Below, piece by piece: positions 8,093 to 63,183 of a DNA stretch of 64,000 bases. The stretch spans positions 149,047-213,046 of the forward strand of contig JALHPE010000002.1 of NCBI GenBank assembly GCA_022842645.1, in the 5' to 3' direction. This DNA is from Minisyncoccota bacterium. Its GTDB lineage: Bacteria > Patescibacteriota > Minisyncoccia > Phycocordibacterales > UBA2100. Position 1 is the first letter of the stretch, and the number at the start of each line of letters is the position of its first letter. The translations under genes were made by a program, and so were the position numbers. The notes under the pieces are model-generated. The model was given only the letters and a program-made list of their open reading frames with translations. It searched no databases and was not told where the DNA came from.

Positions 8093-8413
8093 ATGTATTC
8101 ATTCCCAGAACTAATCAAAAAAATACGAGAAGCGGCCGGCATGACGCAGGCCGATTTTGCGCGGGCGCTCGGCGTATCCGCCGTGCTAATTGCAATGGTG
8201 GAAACTGGGCAAAAAGAGGTTTCTAAAAATTTGCTTCGCAAAATTGCCGAGCAGTTAGATGTGCATCCGTCCTCCATAACACCTTTCCTGTTCGCGGATG
8301 AGAAAAAAGATACCCTGTCGCCAGTCGAGAAAAAGTTTATTCAGTGGGGCGAGCAACTACAGGAGCATTTGATAAAAGACCGTGCAAAACTTCTCAAAAA
8401 CCATGCGGCGTAG
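8093..8413 (+). CDS. XRE-family helix-turn-helix protein (Cro/C1-type)
   Basis: HTH_3-like GMTQADFARALGVSAVLIAMVETGQKEVSKNLLRKIAEQLDV; its stop overlaps the RT start (ccATGcggcgTAG). Confidence 0.7.
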   Translation: MYSFPELIKKIREAAGMTQADFARALGVSAVLIAMVETGQKEVSKNLLRKIAEQLDVHPSSITPFLFADEKKDTLSPVEKKFIQWGEQLQEHLIKDRAKLLKNHAA

Positions 8414-9401
8414 GCGATACCCAAAAATCCATATACAGAGCAAGAACGAGCTGGCAAAGCATATAGACAGCGCACGTCTCCCATATGAGAAAGCCCTGTC
8501 GCTCATAAACGATGTGCAAACTAACTTTGATACTTACTGGAAAGACCACCCTACGCAGTCCAAACCAGATAAACGTAAATGGGTACGAAATGCCGCAGGC
8601 ACACCTCTCGCACGGCTTCTTGATTTGATAAACGCAAAAGTTCTCACCCCCGCCGATCTGCTATTGCCAAGTTTCATCTTTGGCGGGATTGGCGGTTTGA
8701 ACCATAAAGCTGCCGTATTACATCTGCTCGGCAATAAGCGAAAACGGATTTTACTCAAACTAGATATAACGAGGTTTTTTGAGCAGATACGCCACGAGCG
8801 GGTCTATCACTTTTTCCGCGATAAGTGCAAATGCAGTGATAAGGGCGCAAAGATACTTGCTGACCTTTGCTGTGTCCGCCACGGCCCGAAGGAAAAACCG
8901 GACGCATATAAAACGATTGCTCGCGGCTTCGCCACTTCGTCGCGCCTTGCTGTCTGGTGCAATGTAGACACCTTCCTGCGCCTTGAGCGGCTTGTGCAAA
9001 AAGAATTGCGAGGCAAAGACCCCCGCATCGCCGTTTATGTAGACGACATCGGCATTACCGCAAGTAGGGCGTCGAAGGAGGATATGTTGCGGCTATATGT
9101 AAAAATAAAAACACTTTTGGAACAGGACAAGAATCAACCACTACCTCTAAACGACGACAAGACAAAAGTGATCTTCCATAGTGGCGAAACTTATGACAAA
9201 GACGGAAATTATCTTGGTAAATGGGCGTTTGAACATTTGGGCTTGCAGATGAATCGCAACTCCGTAACTATCGGTTCAAAAACGAGGGGAAAACTGGATA
9301 GAGCAACAAGCGAATTAGAAAAAAGTGATAAGAAAGACCAAACAACCAAACGACGCAGAGGAGCGTTCTTGAATTACAAACGGTATATCGAGGCAGAATA
9401 A
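8403..9401 (+). CDS. reverse transcriptase, retron-type-like
   Basis: RT motifs LLKLDITRFF (motif A Asp), RGFATSSRLA (retron QGxxxSPxLA-like), YVDDIG (YxDD), SVTIG (retron VTG-like). About 333 aa, the size of retron RTs. Overlaps the HTH gene by 11 nt. Confidence 0.75.
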   Translation: MRRRRYPKIHIQSKNELAKHIDSARLPYEKALSLINDVQTNFDTYWKDHPTQSKPDKRKWVRNAAGTPLARLLDLINAKVLTPADLLLPSFIFGGIGGLNHKAAVLHLLGNKRKRILLKLDITRFFEQIRHERVYHFFRDKCKCSDKGAKILADLCCVRHGPKEKPDAYKTIARGFATSSRLAVWCNVDTFLRLERLVQKELRGKDPRIAVYVDDIGITASRASKEDMLRLYVKIKTLLEQDKNQPLPLNDDKTKVIFHSGETYDKDGNYLGKWAFEHLGLQMNRNSVTIGSKTRGKLDRATSELEKSDKKDQTTKRRRGAFLNYKRYIEAE

Positions 9402-10018: not shown

Positions 10019-10019
10019 G

Positions 10020-10091
10020 TGACTCTAGCGGGAATCGAACCCGCCTTCCATCCTTGAGAAGGATGTGTCCTAGCCGATAGACGATAGAGCC
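10020..10091 (-). tRNA. tRNA-Glu (anticodon CTC)
   Basis: Cloverleaf folds by hand: acceptor GGCTCTA/TAGAGTC, D-stem GTCT/GGAC, anticodon stem CATCC/GGATG with loop TTCTCAA, T-arm GCGGG-TTCGATT-CCCGC. Confidence 0.8.
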
Positions 10092-15139: not shown

Positions 15140-15222
15140 TTTGTAGACTGTAGTCTGTAGATTGTAGTTGAATGCATACGATTCCCGTCTTTAACTACAA
15201 ACTACTTTCTACAAACTACACA
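15140..15222. repeat. REP-like imperfect palindrome of TGTAGTTTGTAG/CTACAAACTACA units (copy 1)
   Basis: Left arm TTTGTAGACTGTAGTCTGTAGATTGTAGTT, right arm AACTACAAACTACTTTCTACAAACTACA. The 27-mer ACTACAAACTACTTTCTACAAACTACA is identical to 63157-63183. Confidence 0.7.
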
Positions 15223-15226
15223 CTGC

Positions 15227-16781: not shown

Positions 16782-17312
16782 CTATATAACTTCTAAAGCC
16801 GGTGCCTCAGGAGACGACTCTTCAGTCGATGTCGGACTCTCTACTGGCGTCGATTCTTCAACTGATACGGGTTCAATTGGTTCCACTTCTTCCTGTGTCT
16901 CACTCGTCACATCAATGTCCTCGCTGGAAAGAGTATCTTGTGTCAGTTCTTGAGAGGCACCTTCTTCCGTCTGTTCAACGGACACAACCGCTTCGGACAC
17001 AGCACCACCAGAACCATCTCCACCACCCCCGCTCGAGGTTGGGTCTTCTGGGATCTCGGACCCTGCCTGATGTGGTGCCTCTTCTTCTTCGATAATCAAA
17101 TCTTCTGTCGTTGTACCGAGAACTGCAGCAAACATCATTTGCTCCGGAAGAACTGGCGGCGACCATTCACCTGCACGAAATACATTGCCAATGGAGCGTT
17201 CGATGTCACTAAAGTAGGAAATGGTTCCCCCTGCACCCCCTGCCATCATAGAAGACATGAAAACGAGTCCTAACACGAGCGCGGTTGATGTGCCGTAGGT
17301 GTCTTTATGCAT
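16782..17312 (-). CDS. possible nested or fused SipW-substrate protein (internal start MHKDTYGTSTALVLGLVF...)
   Basis: In-frame Met at 17310-17312, followed by a hydrophobic stretch and the AGGAGGT-ISYFSDIERSIGNVFRAG motif, then a low-complexity acidic tail; same frame as sipW with no intervening stop. Confidence 0.3.
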   Translation of the reverse strand: MHKDTYGTSTALVLGLVFMSSMMAGGAGGTISYFSDIERSIGNVFRAGEWSPPVLPEQMMFAAVLGTTTEDLIIEEEEAPHQAGSEIPEDPTSSGGGGDGSGGAVSEAVVSVEQTEEGASQELTQDTLSSEDIDVTSETQEEVEPIEPVSVEESTPVESPTSTEESSPEAPALEVI

Positions 17313-18008
17313 ACGAAATTGTGTGTGCCACCACTCCGCGTGCATGAACTGCGGCTTCATATACATTGGAATGAAAATCTCGTCCATCGCGCGTTCGCGT
17401 CCATAAAAGAGACGTAGAGGCGCACCCTCTTCATCCACTGAGCCTGCACCGCCTTTGGGCGTATCATCCTCGCCACGGCGTCTGCGCAGTGCCGCACGCG
17501 CTTCTTTTGCAATCGTGATTATCTCTTCAAGAATAATGAGTCCTGCTGGAAGTCCGATGAGAAGAGCAAAACCAAGCGGCTGGCGTGCAAAATCAAGCAC
17601 AAAGCCCGCGCCCGGCACATGTACCAATACTTTTCCTATCACTTCCCGCAGGGCCACAGAGTCTTGATCGATCTCCTCGTTCGCATCCCCCTTCGTGATG
17701 AAGATTCGTTCAGAGCCAGTGCCTTCCACAGCGACAATGCGGTGGGTGGTGGGAATCTCACTTGCGGTGTCGGGGCCAAAGGTGATTACGTCGCCAACGC
17801 TGTAAGAGAACGACGAGGAAGGCTTCACGATCACCAGTGAGCCCGTCGGAATCGCGGGCTCCATCGAACCCGATTTCACAATCTTAATCTCAATGTTCCC
17901 CGGAATCGGGAGCATCGAACCCACCAGAAGCCCCGCGACACCAAGGAGAGCCGCGATGAAAATAGTGGTGAAAAGTATGTTAATGAATTTGATCATATTA
18001 TCTTCCAA
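16782..18008 (-). CDS. sipW: signal peptidase I, archaeal/SipW type (S26B), with a ~240-aa in-frame C-terminal extension
   Basis: N-terminal TM, catalytic motifs KSGSMEP, THRIV and ITKGDAN, then a second TM. The extension contains ...ALVLGLVFMSSMMAGGAGGTISYFSDIERSIGNVFRAGEW (a SipW-cognate class signal motif) and an acidic S/T/E/P-rich tail. Confidence 0.8.
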   Translation of the reverse strand: MEDNMIKFINILFTTIFIAALLGVAGLLVGSMLPIPGNIEIKIVKSGSMEPAIPTGSLVIVKPSSSFSYSVGDVITFGPDTASEIPTTHRIVAVEGTGSERIFITKGDANEEIDQDSVALREVIGKVLVHVPGAGFVLDFARQPLGFALLIGLPAGLIILEEIITIAKEARAALRRRRGEDDTPKGGAGSVDEEGAPLRLFYGRERAMDEIFIPMYMKPQFMHAEWWHTQFRMHKDTYGTSTALVLGLVFMSSMMAGGAGGTISYFSDIERSIGNVFRAGEWSPPVLPEQMMFAAVLGTTTEDLIIEEEEAPHQAGSEIPEDPTSSGGGGDGSGGAVSEAVVSVEQTEEGASQELTQDTLSSEDIDVTSETQEEVEPIEPVSVEESTPVESPTSTEESSPEAPALEVI

Positions 18009-18993
18009 TCAAAAGCCGTATCTGGTTGATGATGTTGGTGGTCGAAGAGGTTGACGACGCGTTCCCTGTTATGACGGTTCCGCCGCCGCCCGCATAATTA
18101 CCGCCGGTATTCGAGCTTGAAGTTGTCGTTGAATTCACTACAGCATTGTTGTTCACGTTAATCGTGACGGGACCACCACAGCCTCCATTACACGCATATT
18201 CGCAGGTCGTCCCTTTCTTCACACAGGTGAATTTCTTGTTGTCTTTCACAGGGACAGCGCGGAATGAAATGTCGACTGAGAAGGAATCTGTTTGTGCTTC
18301 GTTACCCAAGACCGTCCCGTCACAAGTAATCGTCGCCGCGGGCACATTCACCACCAAATCTCCAGCGCACCACTCAATTCCGATGTAGCGTGTGCTTGAT
18401 GCGGTGAGCGGATTTCCTGTTTTCGAATCCGCAATCGCATAGGTCATCTGATTCAACACCTTTGTCGCCGCTTGTTTATTGGTCGACGTTCCGAAAAGTG
18501 GAATCTCCCCAACTTCAAAGATATTGTCTCCGTCGTCATACCAGCCGAAAAACTCTGTCCCATCAGCCAGTTCCCCCGAGTTCGCGCCGCCGGAATTGTC
18601 TGCAAGCAATTCCGGCTCATTTCTGCCGTTCTCTTTCTCCTTCAGTTTCTCAAAGTCCAAGCAGATCCACGCATCCTTATTCACGTGGAGTGAAATGGTC
18701 GCTTCGCCTCTGTCGCCTGGCTTCACGTCAGAAATGTTGAAGAATTTATCCGAGTGTGGATTGAGGTTTTTGAGATTCCACGTGGACGCGGGTTGGATGA
18801 CCCCATTCCACGAAGCCTTGCTGTCGATCTTCAGGTCAAACGCATTGCCCTTCTTACCTGTCGCAAAGGTGAATCCTGTCGCTTCTGTCCTAAACCCAAA
18901 CGCAAGCACCACCGCCGACATAACGAGGGCGGTGAATACTATGCGTGCTGAGAGTTTGAGACGAGACATATCGGTTTTCCAGCTAGAGTGCAC
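17998..18993 (-). CDS. TasA/camelysin-like secreted protein, paralog A (SipW-cognate signal class)
   Basis: Signal region ...AVVLAFGFRTEATGFTFATGKKGNAFDLKIDS; conserved FNISDVKPGDRGEATISLHVNKDAWIC and C-terminal WCAGD...TITCDGTVLGNEAQTDS...C module shared with paralogs B and C. Confidence 0.65.
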   Translation of the reverse strand: MHSSWKTDMSRLKLSARIVFTALVMSAVVLAFGFRTEATGFTFATGKKGNAFDLKIDSKASWNGVIQPASTWNLKNLNPHSDKFFNISDVKPGDRGEATISLHVNKDAWICLDFEKLKEKENGRNEPELLADNSGGANSGELADGTEFFGWYDDGDNIFEVGEIPLFGTSTNKQAATKVLNQMTYAIADSKTGNPLTASSTRYIGIEWCAGDLVVNVPAATITCDGTVLGNEAQTDSFSVDISFRAVPVKDNKKFTCVKKGTTCEYACNGGCGGPVTINVNNNAVVNSTTTSSSNTGGNYAGGGGTVITGNASSTSSTTNIINQIRLLIGR

Positions 18994-19021
18994 TCAGCCC
19001 TCTTGCATTCCTCGGTATCAC

Positions 19022-20386
19022 TTAGAGATCTACCACTTGATTCAAGCTCGCACACTGGAAGTTTGCGTTGTTGCGCTGTTGCACTGCGCTGAAGACGAGG
19101 CTGGAGGTAAGAATGTCCGTCTGCGCCACGTTGTAGGACGGACTCGTACCATCACAGGTAATCGAACCATCGCCATTCACTGTCTGTTCGCCGAAGCACC
19201 ATGCGCTTCCAAGATATGCGGTTGTTGTTGCCGTGAGCGGAAGACGCGTCATGCTAACGTTCTGAAAACCACCCGTGTAGAGCGAAGTCTCTCCACTTCC
19301 CGGCTCGTAGACCCCATCGCCGTCTGTATCCCCCCAGACAAAGAGTTTGATGAAATCTGAAAGCTCACCGTTTGGAATTCCGTCGAGGAGATCGTCCCCT
19401 GCTTCAATTTCTGGTTCGATCGGCGTATTTTCGTTATCGCTCACATTTTGCGTGAGCATACATGCGTATGCATCGTTGTCATACACGTGGAGCGAAATCA
19501 CGTTCGTGCCACGATCACCTGGCTTCACGTCGTTGAAGTTCCAGAACACATCGCCGTCGGCGAGATCTTTTTCACTCCAGAGTTTGCACTGACCGTTCGT
19601 GATGACCGTCTGACAATTGAGCTCTTGTACGCGGAAATCATCCACAAATGTACCCAGAGAGTTTGCAGTACCGAGGTCGGTAAAGCGTACGCGTGTGAGG
19701 TTTGTTGTTGCAGTCACCTGCACCGTTTCTTCCTGCCACGCAATCGGACCGCCGCCGCCCGCAACATTCCCTGTGTCATCAACAACCACACCACCCCACT
19801 GTATTTCGAGTCGATTGTCGGATGCAGGTGTGTTCGGACGTGGAGCAAACTTGTATTTAATAATGTAGTTCTTGCCCGGGACTGTCGGAATGTCTCTGTA
19901 GAACGAGACAGATGCTGGCTCCCCTTGCCCGCCATCGCTCGGACCTCCCCAATCAGTGTCGAGTTCTGCGTACTGGTCGCCCTCTGCCGCAGCGCCAACT
20001 ACATTCTCGTGATATTCCATCTTGGCGACGGCCGGACGATTTTGAGAACCGAACGTCGCCGGAATATCGCTACGCCACTCAACAGTCCACCCACCCGCAG
20101 GAGAATCGAAGATGTCCCACTGAGAACCGTTTGTCACTTCTGGATCTTCAAACCCTGCTCCCGAGATTGCTAAAAGATTCCCCGGCACTTCCACACACCC
20201 GTTCTGACACTCGTCTCCGTTATATGTCTGTCTGGTGTGGTCGATTTTCAGGTCGATCGCCCCTGCGGTGAACGTGTTTCCGGTCGAAGTTTCTGTATCG
20301 GAAAAGAACGCACTCGTGCCTGTCGCAACGGCACCTCCTGCCGAGACGATGAGGAGAAGCCCCAAAACTATTCTTGATATGTTCAT
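19022..20386 (-). CDS. TasA/camelysin-like secreted protein, paralog B, with an inserted beta-sandwich (carbohydrate-binding-like) domain
   Basis: AFFSDTETSTGNTFTAGAIDLKIDH signal motif; FNDVKPGDRGTNVISLHVYDNDAYAC; ~170-aa insertion ending ...TNLTRVRFTDLGTANSLGTFVDDFRV. Start chosen at ATG 20386 (the track uses an upstream GTG). Confidence 0.65.
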   Translation of the reverse strand: MNISRIVLGLLLIVSAGGAVATGTSAFFSDTETSTGNTFTAGAIDLKIDHTRQTYNGDECQNGCVEVPGNLLAISGAGFEDPEVTNGSQWDIFDSPAGGWTVEWRSDIPATFGSQNRPAVAKMEYHENVVGAAAEGDQYAELDTDWGGPSDGGQGEPASVSFYRDIPTVPGKNYIIKYKFAPRPNTPASDNRLEIQWGGVVVDDTGNVAGGGGPIAWQEETVQVTATTNLTRVRFTDLGTANSLGTFVDDFRVQELNCQTVITNGQCKLWSEKDLADGDVFWNFNDVKPGDRGTNVISLHVYDNDAYACMLTQNVSDNENTPIEPEIEAGDDLLDGIPNGELSDFIKLFVWGDTDGDGVYEPGSGETSLYTGGFQNVSMTRLPLTATTTAYLGSAWCFGEQTVNGDGSITCDGTSPSYNVAQTDILTSSLVFSAVQQRNNANFQCASLNQVVDL

Positions 20387-20402
20387 AATTGTTGTTTTTA
20401 AT

Positions 20403-20485
20403 GTCACGGATATTTCTTTGGTAAGAAATTCCGCAACCCCGCCTCAGCATCGACATGCTTCCGGCCTTGCGATGGGGCCCCGTCC
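20403..20485. promoter_or_regulatory. about 85-bp module, copy 1, with palindromic operator-like site GGATATTTCTTTGGTAAGAAATTCC (20408-20432) 25 nt upstream of the paralog B start
   Basis: Imperfect palindrome; the module is about 75% identical to 20585-20665. Confidence 0.5.
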
Positions 20486-20584
20486 CCATCTCACCCCCGA
20501 ATTTTTAATGTGGCGCTGAATCTTGTTCAGCTTGCCGAGCACCTCGTGAGATGCTCGACCTAGCTATCCAAGACCTTGCGGTGC

Positions 20585-20665
20585 GTCACGGATATTTCTT
20601 TGCTAAGAAATTCCGCGACCCCGCCTCGGAGCCAAGCTCCTCCGGCCTTGCGACGAGCCCCCGGC
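20585..20665. promoter_or_regulatory. about 85-bp module, copy 2, with palindrome GGATATTTCTTTGCTAAGAAATTCC (20590-20614)
   Basis: Direct duplicate of 20403-20485, 182 bp away. Confidence 0.5.
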
Positions 20666-20816
20666 TCGTCGCACCCGCCTGCCGGATTTTCAGCTCTTTG
20701 GAGCTGAAAATCCGGCGAAAGTACGGCTATACCCGAGCCTCATTCGTGCAATTTCGGGCGAAATTGCACGCAAGCTCGTTTTGACCCTATCTCCTCACAA
20801 CGCGCGTTGTGAGGAG
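20651..20816 (-). terminator. cluster of four consecutive perfect hairpins immediately downstream of the paralog C stop
   Basis: Perfect 26-nt palindrome CTCCTCACAACGCGCGTTGTGAGGAG (20791-20816); CGTGCAATTTCG/CGAAATTGCACG (20745-20770); CCGGATTTTCAGCTC-TTTG-GAGCTGAAAATCCGG (20682-20715); CGACGAGCC-CCC-GGCTCGTCG (20651-20671). Confidence 0.45.
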
Positions 20817-20840
20817 ATCCTGGGTCAGGCTAGAGAACTA

Positions 20841-21773
20841 CTAGCTCTGAGGATTGCAAGAGAAGTTCGGATTGTTTCGAGACTGCTCTACGTAGAATGT
20901 CAGGTCGGCATTCCATGAATCGGTTTGTGCTTCGTTGCCCATAGTCGCACCGTTACAAACGATTGGATTACCTGGAGTTGGAGTTCCAATATCGCCCGCA
21001 CACCATGCGAGACCAATGTAACTGGTTGAACCGCCCTCAATTGGGGTATCGCCACCCTCTGCAAGTGCCCACGTTGTGGCTGCGAGCGAGCTCGCAGAAA
21101 CGGGCCCACCAAGTGCTGTTTCGCCAAGTTCAAAGACGTTATCGCCGTCGTCTGTCCATGCGAAGAACTCAAGATTGGTGTCGAGATCTCCATTGTTAGG
21201 GGTTGCATCTTCCCCTACAAGACCTCCAGATTCATCTTCTGGCTCGGTAATGCTGTTATCAGCATCGCCAATGTTTGCAATCGATGCACACATCCATGCA
21301 TCATTGCTGCCGACGTGAATCGAGATGGTGTTTTCACCATTGTCGCCCGGCTTGATGTCATTGAAGTTAAAGAATTCATCCATGCCAAGTGTGTTTTCGC
21401 TCAGGTTACCCACTGGCCATGTGCCCGTACATGCCGAGCCTGCTGTTGGGAACTGCGCAGGATTTGCAAGATTGTATGCATCCCATTCAGTTTGCTCATT
21501 CATGTTTCCAGCTGCTACAGGAGAAGACGAAGCGTTCAGTGTCACACTCGTCTCTGGAATGTAGTGGTAGGTGGCACCAACGAGTGTGCAGACCATGCCG
21601 TTGTAATGAGCGACGCTATCGATCTGAAGATCAATATCGCCCGCTGTAAACGTATTTCCCGTCGACGTTTCCGTGTCGGAGAAGAATGCGCCCGTCGAGC
21701 TTACGACGACCGCGCCCACAAACACAATCATCGCAAGAGATGCGAGGATGCGTGTATTAAGAAGTGCTGTCAT
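20841..21773 (-). CDS. TasA/camelysin-like secreted protein, paralog C
   Basis: TM plus AFFSDTETSTGNTFTAGDIDLQIDS; FNDIKPGDNGENTISIHVGSNDAWMC; C-terminal WCAGD...IVCNGATMGNEAQTDS...C. Confidence 0.7.
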   Translation of the reverse strand: MTALLNTRILASLAMIVFVGAVVVSSTGAFFSDTETSTGNTFTAGDIDLQIDSVAHYNGMVCTLVGATYHYIPETSVTLNASSSPVAAGNMNEQTEWDAYNLANPAQFPTAGSACTGTWPVGNLSENTLGMDEFFNFNDIKPGDNGENTISIHVGSNDAWMCASIANIGDADNSITEPEDESGGLVGEDATPNNGDLDTNLEFFAWTDDGDNVFELGETALGGPVSASSLAATTWALAEGGDTPIEGGSTSYIGLAWCAGDIGTPTPGNPIVCNGATMGNEAQTDSWNADLTFYVEQSRNNPNFSCNPQS

Positions 21774-36255: not shown

Positions 36256-37713
36256 TTAATTCTTTGGGCGCAAGAGTGGAAACAGTTGTGATTCATGTGC
36301 AGAACGATTCTCAAGGAAGGCAAAGAGACGCTCCGAAACACCGAATCCAAAAGCCGGTGGCATGCCATATTCCATTGCTTGGACATATTCTTCATCGAGG
36401 CGCTGCGCCTCATCGTCCCCTCCATCGCGCATTTTCTGTTGTTCTTCAAAACGCGCACGCTGATCCTGTGGATCATTGAGTTCGCTAAAACCCTTCCCCA
36501 TTTCGGAGCCGGCAAGCAGTACCTGGAAACGTTCGACCACGTCGGGGTTAGTGCTTGAGCGCTTTGCAAGCGGCTCAAGATACACGGGAACTCCCACGAG
36601 GAATGCAGGCCCCGCGATATTCTTGCGAATGCGTTTCCAAAGGTTATCAATCGCACGCGCTTTGTTCGGATCTTTCCCTAGTTCGACTTTTGCATTACGC
36701 GCTGCTTGAATCGCCTCTTCTTCAGTACATGTTACCGGGTTCACACCATACTCCTTTTCAATTGCCTCACAGAAATCTACAAGCGGCCATTCCTCGGCAA
36801 AATCAACAGTATGGTCACCAATTTGAAATGTATATTTTCCATACACAGCGTTCACGAGGTGGCGATAGAGATCTTTCGTAAATTCCATCCCCTTCTTCAT
36901 GTCGCTAAAAGCTTCGTAAAATTCAAGTGCTGTATAGTCTTGCAAATGCTCACGTGACTGCCCTTCGTTCCTAAAAATGCGTCCTATTTCAAACACTTTC
37001 GGAAAACCAGCAACAAGAAGACGCTTTTGCCAAAGTTCGAGCGAAATACGAAGATACACCTCGATATCGAGTGCATTGTGTTTGGTGATGAAAGGGCGCG
37101 CATCAGCGCCTCCCGGTGATGTTTCGAGTACTGGTGTCTCGACCTCGAGAAACCCACGTCCATGCAAAAATTCTCGCGCCGCACTCCAAAAGCGCGCACG
37201 ACGTTCAAACATGGCGCGCAAATCTTCATCAAGAAGTAGAGAGAGATATCGTTGACGAAGGATTGTTTCCTCGTCTTTGAGCCCAAACCACTGATCCGGA
37301 ATCGGTGCGAGTGATTTTGCAAGCATTTTCCAGGAAGTAGCTTTCAGCGAGTTGTGGCCACGATTGGTTTTGTAGGCGACTCCCGCCACCTGAATGAAAT
37401 CACCGACGTCTGTCGCGTTGGAGAAAAGGTGAAAAAGAGCTTCGTCGAACTCATCTTTTTGAAAAACCACCTGCACCTTGCCCGAGCCATCAAAAAGATC
37501 CACAAAGACAATCCCACCCTGACCACGTTTTGACATCACGCGCCCGGCGAGAGTTTTACTATTTCCTGAAGAAAGGAGATCTTCGAATTGCTCGAGAAAC
37601 ACCGACGCATCCGTGTCGCGCTCGGTTTGCGCCGGATATGCCTCCATCCCCGCAAGGCGCAGGAGTTCCATTTTTTTTAGACGATCTGCTCGAATTTCAT
37701 CGCCACTCGACAT
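36256..37713 (-). CDS. lysS: lysine--tRNA ligase (class II)
   Basis: OB-fold N-domain; class II motifs (FRNEGQSREH...EF; GFGVSERL). Confidence 0.85.
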   Translation of the reverse strand: MSSGDEIRADRLKKMELLRLAGMEAYPAQTERDTDASVFLEQFEDLLSSGNSKTLAGRVMSKRGQGGIVFVDLFDGSGKVQVVFQKDEFDEALFHLFSNATDVGDFIQVAGVAYKTNRGHNSLKATSWKMLAKSLAPIPDQWFGLKDEETILRQRYLSLLLDEDLRAMFERRARFWSAAREFLHGRGFLEVETPVLETSPGGADARPFITKHNALDIEVYLRISLELWQKRLLVAGFPKVFEIGRIFRNEGQSREHLQDYTALEFYEAFSDMKKGMEFTKDLYRHLVNAVYGKYTFQIGDHTVDFAEEWPLVDFCEAIEKEYGVNPVTCTEEEAIQAARNAKVELGKDPNKARAIDNLWKRIRKNIAGPAFLVGVPVYLEPLAKRSSTNPDVVERFQVLLAGSEMGKGFSELNDPQDQRARFEEQQKMRDGGDDEAQRLDEEYVQAMEYGMPPAFGFGVSERLFAFLENRSAHESQLFPLLRPKN

Positions 37714-37768
37714 CCCGCGATTCTACCATGAGAGAAGGCCCCGTGCGTTTTCGCACGAGGCCTCGCGT

Positions 37769-37932
37769 TATCGGCTGGATGCAATAAGTGCGATCCCAGC
37801 GCCAACAAAGAGCATGATAATGCCCGCTGCGCCAAGCACCATATCTCCAGACGATCCAATCTCACGAAATTCTATGAGGAGCACTGTGCCTCCCAGAATC
37901 CCGCCGAGACCGACAAGCGAACCAACGTTCAT
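37769..37932 (-). CDS. hypothetical small membrane protein (54 aa, 2 TM)
   Basis: MNVGSLVGLGGILGGTVLLIEF...; below the ORF-track size cutoff; found by manual translation. Confidence 0.3.
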
Positions 37933-37987
37933 AGAAACCTCCTTTTCGCTGGTTGAAAAGCATTATACTACAAAAAACTACGTAATG

Positions 37988-38401
37988 TCAATTCGTGACG
38001 CAATTGGCATACGTGGCGCCCCCTCCTTCAACGAGAGACGCCTGCTCCCCCCCCCCCCGAAACTCAATGGTTTGCGTATTGTTGAGGTAACGAATACCAG
38101 AATCAGACTCTGCTTGTCGGAGTGTAATCTGTCTCCCATCTGAAAGTGTGAGGCCGAGAATATCGCGTGTAAAAACAGCCGTCATAGTCTTCGCTTCAGC
38201 GCAGGCAAATTCTACGAGATTCTCCTCACCGATGGATGCCCCTTGGCGTTCGGTTGGAGCGGGTGGTTTTTCCTCGTGCGCGGTCTCGATCGGTTGTGAA
38301 ACCGTTACGGGCTGAGCGAGAGGCACAGAATCTTCCCGCATGAAGAAGAAGGCTGAGAGAGCGATTAAGGCGAGTATGGTGATGGAAACCGCCACCTTCA
38401 T
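37988..38401 (-). CDS. MliC-like (C-type lysozyme inhibitor family) secreted/lipoprotein-like protein containing a G12 homopolymer
   Basis: Signal/TM N-terminus; ESDSGIRY ... FRGGGEQASLVEGGG...C resembles the MliC SxSGAxY...C pattern. The RGGGE codons are encoded by a 12-G run (plus-strand C12 at 38047-38058). Confidence 0.45.
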   Translation of the reverse strand: MKVAVSITILALIALSAFFFMREDSVPLAQPVTVSQPIETAHEEKPPAPTERQGASIGEENLVEFACAEAKTMTAVFTRDILGLTLSDGRQITLRQAESDSGIRYLNNTQTIEFRGGGEQASLVEGGGATYANCVTN

Positions 38402-39519
38402 TACTCCATGCTAGCACGCCTCTCGGATACCAACATACGCACCGAAACCCACGTGGTGATCGGAACCGCGAGCACCAGCCCGATTGAGCCGACGAGGATA
38501 CGTACTATTTCCGTCGCAAATATTTCGCGATTAATGGTGAGTCCCAGATTCAAATCACCTGTTTGATAAAAGAGAAGAAGAAGCGGAAGTGCCGCGCCGG
38601 CATAGGCGATGGCAAGCGTATTCACCAAAGCACCCACGTGCTCGCGACCAATACGAAGCGCACGACGATAGATTTCCGCTCGAGAAAGGTGCTCTCCTGC
38701 GCTCGCAAGTTCTTCCACTGCCACTGCTTGCCCGATAGCACCGTCGTAGAGGACACCGAGGAGGCCAATCAAAATCCCTCCAAGAAGAAGCCCTGCAAGA
38801 TCGATCGCTCCGCGTGCGTTCAGGTTCAAATAGGTCACCTCATCCCCACTCCAACCCTCCAGGTGCGTCCATTCAATAGAAAGCCACGCGAGAATACCAG
38901 TGATGCCGATGGTAATAATCATTCCGAGCACAGCTGCGCTTGTTGTCTTAGTAAAACCGTGTGTCACGTAAGAGCCAAGCGTCACAATGACCGCGGCAAC
39001 CGCAATTGAAACCAGGACCGGCGAATACCCCGCAAGAATTCCTGGCAGGAGAAATGCGCCGATGAAAAAGAAACTGCCGAAAAGCGCAAGGAGTCCGCGC
39101 GCACCTTGCTTACCACCAAAAATAAGTGTCACAAAAATAAAAAGCGCCGCAAGTATAAAGAGCGGCGTGGTTCTTTCACGCTCCACCACAGAGTAGTAAT
39201 CAGTACCATCAAGATCGCTCAAAGTATGGTTTACGTAGAGTACGTCGCCTTCGTCGAGCACGAAGTAATCATTTTCAATGGTAACTATTTCACCTTTTTC
39301 CGGCTCTTCAAGAATTTCGACACGAATGGTCTGATAGGTACCCGTCACATTCGTTCCTGGCACCTGCTTTGTTTCTTGCGCAACCACCTCGACGACCCGA
39401 GCTTTCATGATGTAGACCGTGTCGCGCACCAATTCCTGTGCAAAAAGTGACGCGGGAAGTGCAAAGAAAAGAAGTGCAAGAAAGAGTCGCATGTGATTAG
39501 TATACGCGCTCAGGCACAT
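38401..39519 (-). CDS. YibE/F-family membrane protein
   Basis: N-terminal signal plus soluble domain, then about eight TM segments. Confidence 0.5.
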   Translation of the reverse strand: MCLSAYTNHMRLFLALLFFALPASLFAQELVRDTVYIMKARVVEVVAQETKQVPGTNVTGTYQTIRVEILEEPEKGEIVTIENDYFVLDEGDVLYVNHTLSDLDGTDYYSVVERERTTPLFILAALFIFVTLIFGGKQGARGLLALFGSFFFIGAFLLPGILAGYSPVLVSIAVAAVIVTLGSYVTHGFTKTTSAAVLGMIITIGITGILAWLSIEWTHLEGWSGDEVTYLNLNARGAIDLAGLLLGGILIGLLGVLYDGAIGQAVAVEELASAGEHLSRAEIYRRALRIGREHVGALVNTLAIAYAGAALPLLLLFYQTGDLNLGLTINREIFATEIVRILVGSIGLVLAVPITTWVSVRMLVSERRASME

Positions 39520-39908
39520 TTATTGCAGAGCCCGAAGAATTCAAGTGCATGCTCGGAAATAGTCTTAAACCCGCGTGAGTTTTTGAGCACCTTTTTTTCA
39601 AGAGGTTCTACGTCGCACGCTTCAAGCTCTTCAACAACCCCACAGTCGGTGCACACGAGATGGTGATGATGCCCCCCAGAGAGTTCGTAACGCATCACGC
39701 CATCCTTAAAGCGTACTTCATGCGCAAGCTCTGCTGCGTGGAGGCTCTGGAGCGTGCGATAGACCGTCACCAGATCGACGTCGGCTACACGCGCGCGAAC
39801 CTCTTCTGCAGTTAAAGGTCCGGTGCAACTTTGCAAAATTTTCATGATGGACAGACGCTTTGGTGTGGCACGCAGACCCTTGGAACGAAGGAGGTGACTC
39901 AATGGCAT
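39510..39908 (-). CDS. Fur-family metal-responsive regulator (Zur/Fur-like)
   Basis: TPKRLSIMKIL...; HHHH and CTDCG...C metal sites. Confidence 0.7.
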   Translation of the reverse strand: MPLSHLLRSKGLRATPKRLSIMKILQSCTGPLTAEEVRARVADVDLVTVYRTLQSLHAAELAHEVRFKDGVMRYELSGGHHHHLVCTDCGVVEELEACDVEPLEKKVLKNSRGFKTISEHALEFFGLCNKCA

Positions 39909-63098: not shown

Positions 63099-63107
63099 GG
63101 AAATAGT

Positions 63108-63183
63108 GTGTAGAGGGTAGTTTGTAGTGTGTAGTAATACAAAAACCCGACTTATTACTACAAACTACTTTCTACAAACTACA
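63108..63183. repeat. REP-like imperfect palindrome, copy 2 (same family as 15140-15222)
   Basis: GTAGTTTGTAGTGTGTAGTAAT ... ATTACTACAAACTACTTTCTACAAACTACA. Confidence 0.7.

Follow-up and report, generated by a model that had tools for sequence, protein, structure and literature searches.

A 12-G tract of differing assembly length in the MliC-like gene of a patescibacterium, a candidate slipped-strand site

The MliC-like gene of a Kaiserbacteria-like member of Patescibacteria (CPR) contains an uninterrupted run of 12 G, and this run is, at the level of assembly consensus, the sole variable site of an otherwise clonal population. The explanation that we favor, with moderate confidence, is that the run, incidental and of recent birth, is hypermutable by slipped-strand mispairing and toggles the gene. 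When incidental and selected origins are taken together, real length heterogeneity with ON/OFF consequences is the most likely reading of the data, and we consider it probable. The sequence examined here is a 64-kb stretch (64,000 nucleotides, referred to as the window) of the 221,730-bp contig on which the gene lies.

Results

A G12 tract in the 3′-proximal part of the gene

The gene and the tract are located in the window as follows.

37988..38401, minus strand: MliC/PliC-family gene, 137 aa (Pfam PF09864, AlphaFold2 model, Foldseek)
38047..38058, minus strand (12 C on the plus strand): G12 homopolymer, flanked on the plus strand by T at 38046 and G at 38059

Across the tract, the coding strand reads TTT CGG GGG GGG GGG GAG and encodes F-R-G-G-G-E (residues 114–119). 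The run is made up of the last two bases of the R115 codon (CGG), the complete codons of G116, G117, and G118, and the first base of the E119 codon, and it lies 84% along the gene. A first-pass annotation of this DNA had described a 12-nt G/C tract encoding RGGGE within an MliC-like gene at 38047–38058, which the sequence and the PF09864 match described below confirm.

No other G/C run in the 64-kb window exceeds 6, which is the length of the next-longest run. Based on composition (50.3% G+C), approximately 0.007 C or G runs of at least 12 would be expected per window. Codon usage in the window points in the same direction: GGG accounts for 20% of Gly codons and CGG for 10% of Arg codons, which, with independent codon choice, gives a probability of about 0.001 that RGGGE is encoded as a 12-G run. 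Among the 49 long ORFs of the window, GGGGGG is used for only one of 123 Gly–Gly dipeptides; G runs are avoided elsewhere in the window, and the G12 tract is not a chance feature of it. With 12 G inside an ORF, the tract also exceeds the length at which slippage becomes frequent, which is about 8 G/C or more.

Predicted fold and membrane anchoring of the MliC-like protein

The protein matches the Pfam MliC family (PF09864) over residues 65–129 with a score of 29.5 bits (E = 7.4e-7; curated cut-off, 22). Its 75 homologues are mostly from Patescibacteria, and most of them have a precomputed PF09864 match. The few named ones, from Candidatus Kaiserbacteria, Patescibacteria, or Minisyncoccia, bear the label “MliC family protein” or the label “membrane-bound inhibitor of C-type lysozyme.”

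A structural model was generated with AlphaFold2 (AF2), using a 30-sequence alignment as input. The model begins with a hydrophobic helix:

38339..38395, minus strand: N-terminal hydrophobic helix, residues 3–21 (sequence and AF2 model)

The helix is followed by a Pro/Glu-rich linker of low confidence (about residues 22–57) and by an eight-stranded β-barrel domain (residues 62–136) with pLDDT >90. When the model was compared with the PDB using Foldseek, the best 11 matches were all PliC, MliC, or PhiA, with a probability of 1.00 and a target TM-score of up to 0.74. The eight-stranded antiparallel β-barrel fold of the MliC/PliC family is, as modeled, present in the window protein.

Because no cysteine precedes C67 in the sequence, the MliC-like protein has no lipobox and is not a lipoprotein. 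The window protein shows neither the lipoprotein targeting of MliC nor the targeting of PliC as a cleaved periplasmic protein. Its N-terminal helix is probably a signal anchor or signal peptide, which holds the protein in the membrane with the barrel outside. Of the earlier description of the protein as secreted or lipoprotein-like, the second part has to be dropped.

Both C67 and C134 are invariant in the 30 aligned sequences, and the Cys pair that the family has near the ends of the domain is present. A profile alignment places C134 on the C-terminal Cys of Escherichia coli YdhA; by analogy with the family disulfide, Cys134 would pair with Cys67.

The tract and the lysozyme-contacting motifs

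Two motifs characterize the MliC family, namely SxSGAxY, which contains Ser89 of Pseudomonas aeruginosa MliC, and YxxxTKG, which contains K103 of the same protein (PMC6033465). S89 and K103 contact lysozyme, and in gonococcal SliC the motif Ser and the motif Lys are both needed for inhibition (PMC6033465). The first motif has a counterpart in the window protein:

38087..38107, minus strand: S99-D-S-G-I-R-Y105, counterpart of SxSGAxY (profile alignment to 2F09)

Set against SASGARY of E. coli YdhA/MliC (2F09), this segment has Ile in place of Ala, and the family consensus, S-G-S-G-I-R-Y, aligns on the same SASGARY in the profile alignment. At the second motif, the family consensus I-E-F-R-G-K-G aligns on YVFWSKG of the E. 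coli protein. Here the window protein reads I-E-F-R-G-G-G and departs from YxxxTKG, the Lys position being taken by G117, whose codon is the middle GGG of the tract. As judged from the alignment, the middle GGG replaces the lysozyme-contacting Lys of the TKG motif. This position reads GKG in the wider family and is occupied by R, Q, K, or E in the nearest clade.

In the AF2 model, residues 115–119 form the turn between β6 (residues 112–117) and β7 (residues 120–125). The part of the domain that lies 3′ of the tract comprises the last two strands:

37994..38044, minus strand: codons 120–136, β7 and β8 (strands 120–125 and 128–136), with the invariant residues E125 and C134

The invariant residues encoded 3′ of the tract, L123, E125, T130, and C134, are intact in the G12 allele. 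When the window protein is compared with the proteins of 24 related loci (L011–L034), the domain core, TAVFxRDIxGLTLSDGRQ, is nearly invariant and the linker is hypervariable.

The window protein resembles the MliC/PliC inhibitors of c-type lysozyme (PMC2267010; PMC6033465; PDB 3F6Z, 3OE3, and 2F09) in its Pfam domain, its Cys pair, its SxSGxxY-like motif, and the eight-stranded barrel, which is predicted here. Unlike these inhibitors, it has a TM or signal-anchor N terminus and a Pro-rich linker instead of a lipobox or a cleaved form, it has Gly in place of the TKG Lys in the window allele (K, R, Q, or E in the nearest clade), and its gene occupies a fixed place, with a YibE/F gene on one side and lysS on the other and with Fur or Znu genes alongside.

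Origin of the tract

All 28 orthologous loci examined lack the tract, and no G run longer than 6 occurs at the site in any of them. Among 23 homologous loci of GTDB genomes and JGI metagenomes in which the site could be located, G runs there do not exceed 4, with CGC GGG AAR GGN GAN as the typical sequence; five distant loci were contributed by GTDB representative genomes. A search for G/C runs of at least 8 in 83 kb across the 24 related loci found none.

The closest relative (P0002/L035), whose MliC-like gene is 66% identical to that of the window at the protein level and 67% at the nucleotide level, reads CGG GGG CGG GGG GAG at the site, that is, G5-C-G6. The contig in question (from run SRR28154522) represents a second, related species that co-occurs in the same run series. 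In another clade (P0004), the site reads AGG GGG CAG GGG GAC. A single C-to-G change, leading from Arg to Gly at a variable loop position, turns the sequence of the closest relative into a 12-G run.

Because the G12 allele has the length of all orthologues, with no indel in the 30-sequence alignment, and because the nearest relative has G5-C-G6, the tract was born by substitution and not by expansion. On these comparisons, 12 is the ancestral, in-frame length, and the birth of the tract is recent and lineage-specific. The locus would then show the birth of a hypermutable tract, from G5-C-G6 to G12, and provide a natural example of the onset of a contingency locus or of rapid pseudogenization. 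When the left flank plus G7 was searched in JGI metagenome contigs, no match was obtained, and the window clone appears to be absent from that collection.

Tract length among assemblies

No gene record matched the window protein or P0001 exactly. Length variants were reached through neighboring genes and through proteins that cluster with the window protein at 90% identity. The cluster contains four further sequences, all from Logan single-run assemblies. The tract comprises 12 G in the window, 14 G in two contigs, and 16 G in one contig. The 14-G version encodes a protein of 141 aa (P0076; locus L001) and is found in two contigs, one of which is from SRR28154528, and the 16-G version encodes a protein of 125 aa (P0079; locus L002) and is from SRR28154529. 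These contigs match the window base for base over 6.4 kb, the tract excepted. Comparison of the window with Logan loci of eight runs, over 1.4 to 6.4 kb each, gave 0 mismatches, which leaves the tract indel as the sole difference.

Length heterogeneity, which the first-pass annotation had proposed to count in raw reads or across strains, is seen between assemblies (12, 14, 14, and 16 G) at a noisy site; these lengths are assembly choices and not read counts. All lengths seen are even, and 13 and 15 are absent among the four tract-spanning assemblies. Since stepwise slippage would predict 13 and 15, the even-only lengths count against biological slippage.

Judging by the 11 to 12 contigs obtained per neighboring gene, at least 12 of the 13 runs SRR28154518–30 contain the organism. 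Only three contigs span the tract, and most others stop at it or just short of it, from both sides. One contig (L004) ends in TTTC followed by 19 G; another (L007) starts with 27 C followed by AGGCGTC, which corresponds to an opposite-strand poly-G tail beginning 3 nt before the tract. Two contigs (L008 and L009) begin 1 nt past the tract, and two more (L040 and L041) change to TruSeq adapter sequence before they reach it, 18 and 57 nt upstream. Contigs L004, L007, L040, and L041 are Logan contigs of SRR28154524, SRR28154525, and SRR28154530. Two of the truncated protein ends that derive from adapter, …IGRAHV and …DRKSVV, are now found among the cluster members in the protein collection.

Contig ends in poly-G or adapter are typical of dark-cycle poly-G calls and of a polymerase that falters on a G-rich template, and coverage across the tract is evidently poor. 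Because most assemblies break at the tract in poly-G tails or adapter, the length calls are not read-level proof, and the lengths of 14 and 16 may reflect stutter or choices made during assembly. The earlier caveat that the homopolymer might be error-prone in the assembly was well founded in view of these contig ends. As a practical consequence, the site breaks short-read assemblies, and the frame of the MliC-like gene is unreliable in any assembly of this organism.

Consequences of length changes for the reading frame

The effect of tract length on the product was assessed by frame simulation. Lengths of 9, 12, 15, and 18 (3n) yield the full protein with a difference of one or two Gly at most (ON in silico), and lengths that are not multiples of 3 break the frame, which answers the question, raised in the first-pass annotation, of what alternative lengths do to the frame. 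The out-of-frame classes end at the following stop codons.

38028..38030, minus strand: TGA stop used at 3n+1 lengths; product of 123–125 aa at 10, 13, and 16 G (122–126 aa for the class), ending AGVSR
37978..37980, minus strand: TAG stop used at 3n+2 lengths; product of 140–142 aa at 11, 14, and 17 G (139–142 aa for the class), ending SRRLSLKEGAPRMPIASRIDIT

In the 3n+1 class, translation stops after five foreign residues, and in the 3n+2 class 22 foreign residues are added. The prediction that gain or loss of one G truncates the protein is correct for the gain (124 aa) and incorrect for the loss, which gives a product of 140 aa with a foreign C terminus. Both out-of-frame classes lack β7, β8, E125, and C134, and for this reason the frameshifts, despite their 3′-proximal position, would not be harmless. 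Out-of-frame products should be unable to form the barrel, and the corresponding alleles are expected to be null alleles. A functional alternative C terminus was considered and rejected: nothing in the foreign sequences suggests function, and 22 open codons are unsurprising by chance, occurring in roughly one in three random sequences by our own estimate.

Gene neighborhood and predicted downstream promoter

The genes around the MliC-like gene are encoded on the same strand.

39510..39908, minus strand: FUR-family regulator gene, which overlaps the YibE/F gene at the start of the latter
38401..39519, minus strand: YibE/F-family membrane protein gene, whose stop overlaps the start of the MliC-like gene (ATGA)
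37962..37991, minus strand: predicted sigma-70 promoter, TTGACA-18-TATAAT, 12/12 (consensus match only)
37768..37932, minus strand: small hydrophobic ORF of 54 aa, between the MliC-like gene and lysS
36256..37713, minus strand: lysyl-tRNA synthetase gene (lysS), the conserved downstream neighbor

The YibE/F gene is the conserved upstream partner of the MliC-like gene, and the order YibE/F–MliC–LysRS is kept in the 24 related loci wherever the contig reaches far enough. This order is conserved across Kaiserbacteria-like and Paceibacteria loci. The 54-aa ORF is also called in the P0004 clade. Identities to the window in the related loci are 42 to 62% for the MliC-like protein and 66 to 93% for the flanking YibE/F protein and LysRS, and on these identities the MliC-like protein evolves much faster than its neighbors.

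In the window, the YibE/F–MliC pair follows the Fur-family regulator; in another locus (L036), it follows a ZnuA/ABC/ABC-3 metal transporter. The neighborhood suggests that the MliC-domain protein is linked to metal homeostasis, instead of or besides lysozyme defense. The wider chromosomal surroundings are core, with uvrA/B/C, mur genes, aminoacyl-tRNA synthetases, msrA/B, and a ZIP transporter. As the neighbors are core housekeeping genes, we rejected the idea that the locus lies on a mobile element or island.

The −35 box of the predicted promoter overlaps the TGA stop of the MliC-like gene, and this promoter likely serves the 54-aa ORF and lysS separately. Because a consensus promoter follows the gene, the effect of a frameshift should stay confined to the MliC-like protein, and a polar effect on lysS is unlikely.

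Discussion

A proposed incidental slipped-strand site

The explanation that we favor starts from one point substitution in the codons of the β6–β7 turn, which would have produced the G12 run. A G run of this length is prone to slipped-strand mispairing at replication, and such mispairing would lead to several tract lengths coexisting in the population. Lengths of 3n would give the complete eight-strand barrel, and 3n+1 and 3n+2 would be OFF, which would make the locus, mechanistically, a stochastic ON/OFF site. The tract itself would be the by-product of one substitution, possibly the first step of gene loss or pseudogenization. We regard an incidental by-product as most likely because the tract is found in one clone, because no other such tract was seen in the window or in 83 kb of related loci, and because the position at which it replaces the Lys was already variable. 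Should the gene be decaying, the process would have only just begun, as every invariant residue encoded past the tract is still in place.

If the heterogeneity is biological, ON/OFF switching by simple sequence repeats (SSRs) also operates in uncultivated, reduced-genome Patescibacteria, and the switched product is a conserved, uncharacterized MliC-like surface protein.

Possible technical variation

It is also conceivable, although we judge it rather unlikely, that the variation is technical only. The tract would then be fixed, probably at 12 G, and the other lengths, as well as the breaks, would come from PCR or cluster-amplification stutter, polymerase stalling, two-color poly-G calls, or de Bruijn simplification at k = 31. 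Illumina two-color chemistry is prone to dark-cycle poly-G tails, and G-rich templates to stalling and stutter. As in such long-G artifacts, the contigs end at the tract in poly-G (19 G in one case and a 27-nt tail in another) or in adapter, and coverage evidently collapses; only three contigs span the tract, and the assembly breaks there in most other runs. The deposited assembly has the in-frame length shared with the orthologues, and the lengths of 13 and 15 that stepwise slippage predicts were never observed.

These artifacts explain the breaks, but they do not easily explain three consensus lengths in tract-spanning contigs. Among four assemblies, the deviations from 12 are expansions, of +2 and +4, whereas stutter normally leaves the true allele most abundant and is biased to contraction. 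Moreover, it would be unusual, whatever the bacterium, for a G12 run to be perfectly stable in vivo.

Possible selection for switching

The first-pass annotation had proposed a phase-variable contingency locus. Of this proposal, the variable length and the breaking of the frame are borne out; the 28 orthologues without the tract and the lack of any other such tract in the window speak against the rest. An evolved contingency locus, in which selection keeps the tract for stochastic ON/OFF expression of the surface MliC-like protein, is in our view unlikely. The benefit could be escape from recognition by phage, host, or predator, traded against protection from muramidase. Several observations fit selection: the sequence and the predicted structure place the tract in an extracytoplasmic protein, this protein is far more diverged (42–62%) than YibE/F and LysRS (66–93%), the tract goes far beyond what codon usage predicts, split G5/G6 runs already exist at the site in close relatives, and apparent OFF alleles dominate some runs while the ON frame persists with all invariant residues. 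They are offset by the restriction of the tract to one clone, with all 28 orthologous loci lacking it, by the absence of any other long G/C tract in the 64 kb of the window or in 83 kb of relatives, and by a 3′-proximal position where a 5′-proximal one is usual. In addition, a single C-to-G change creates the tract, for which selection is not required, the ON allele is already devoid of the motif Lys, and the searched literature holds no precedent in Patescibacteria.

Poly-G/C phase variation of surface-related genes is well described in Campylobacter, Helicobacter, Neisseria, Haemophilus, and Bordetella (PMC8355987, PMC5084427, and PMC1891110). The window locus is like these contingency loci in having an intragenic G/C homopolymer of at least 8 that shifts the frame of an extracytoplasmic target, and, at the level of assemblies, in that tract length is the sole difference between otherwise identical genomes. 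The pathogens, however, have many such loci per species, which are usually 5′, are conserved across strains, and have been shown experimentally to switch, whereas the window has one 3′-proximal tract in one clone of an environmental free-living or episymbiotic lineage, with variation at the assembly level.

In Helicobacter canadensis, 3′-located homopolymers switch the C-terminal sequence (PMC2823697). As in that species, slippage this close to the 3′ end would exchange or remove the C terminus and would not abolish translation early; unlike there, the alternative C termini in the window (AGVSR and the 22-aa tail) show no sign of function. Slippage more probably inactivates the protein than converts one functional form into another. 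Closer in another respect is the 7C tract of Mycobacterium tuberculosis glpK, where homopolymer frameshifts cause phase variation (10.1101/717272; PMC10334774). Both are isolated homopolymers in a core-genome gene of an organism without a dedicated phase-variable repertoire. The glpK frameshifts are reversible, and that case, in contrast to the present one, rests on thousands of isolates and on experiments; the window tract is the longer of the two (12 versus 7).

In the literature searched, no paper linked Patescibacteria or CPR with SSR phase variation, and none dealt with phase-variable MliC genes. The mechanism would be the classical poly-G slipped-strand switch, and what is new would at most be the phylum and the gene. 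It is doubtful, in our estimation, that the locus is the first contingency locus in Patescibacteria (CPR), with a poly-G switch placed where a membrane-anchored MliC-like protein has its lysozyme-contacting loop. If this were true, display of a muramidase inhibitor or surface antigen would be stochastic in subpopulations of ultra-small, probably host-attached cells, some showing it and others not, and the frequencies of the alleles would change from one sample of a community to the next.

Possible rescue during decoding, and the question of an assembly artifact

RNA polymerase slippage on a run of 12 to 16 nt could mix transcript lengths and blur the ON/OFF distinction, a possibility that we consider improbable. 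It can coexist with the other explanations, in that OFF alleles would yield some full-length protein and ON alleles some truncated protein. Long homopolymers do provoke transcriptional slippage, which is best documented for A/T runs of at least 9. The observation that speaks for such rescue here is the length of the tract, and slippage on G/C runs is less well documented than slippage on A/T runs.

That the tract is an assembly artifact absent from the organism is effectively refuted, and its existence is a near certainty: poly-G artifacts do occur in these datasets, but unique, in-frame coding sequence flanks the tract on both sides, in three independent single-run assemblies as well as in the deposited one, contigs approaching from either side meet at the same position, the G12 version has the length of the orthologues, and the nearest relative is one base away.

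Other features of the window

A reverse-transcriptase ORF of 339 aa (8382–9401, plus strand; RVT_1, E = 1.5e-9) lies near tRNA-Glu (10019–10091). Neither a template/variable repeat pair nor an Rfam group II intron or retron RNA was found near it, and no Rfam family other than tRNAs was matched in the 64-kb window. A DGR-like link between this reverse transcriptase and the MliC locus was rejected, given the distance of 29 kb and the lack of a template/variable repeat pair.

Two intergenic elements (15142–15224 and 63104–63183) consist of an array of TGTAGNN heptamers, a short spacer, and an inverted array, and share the core ACTACAAACTACTTTCTACAAACTACA. One of them lies upstream of the mraW gene and the other beside serS, and they could be, to judge from their layout, a repeated palindromic element or an array of binding sites. 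Between the cell-division/mur cluster and ddl, at 16782–21773 on the minus strand, there are four consecutive ORFs of 310 to 461 aa without a Pfam match at E ≤ 1e-5, three of which encode GGGG peptide runs.
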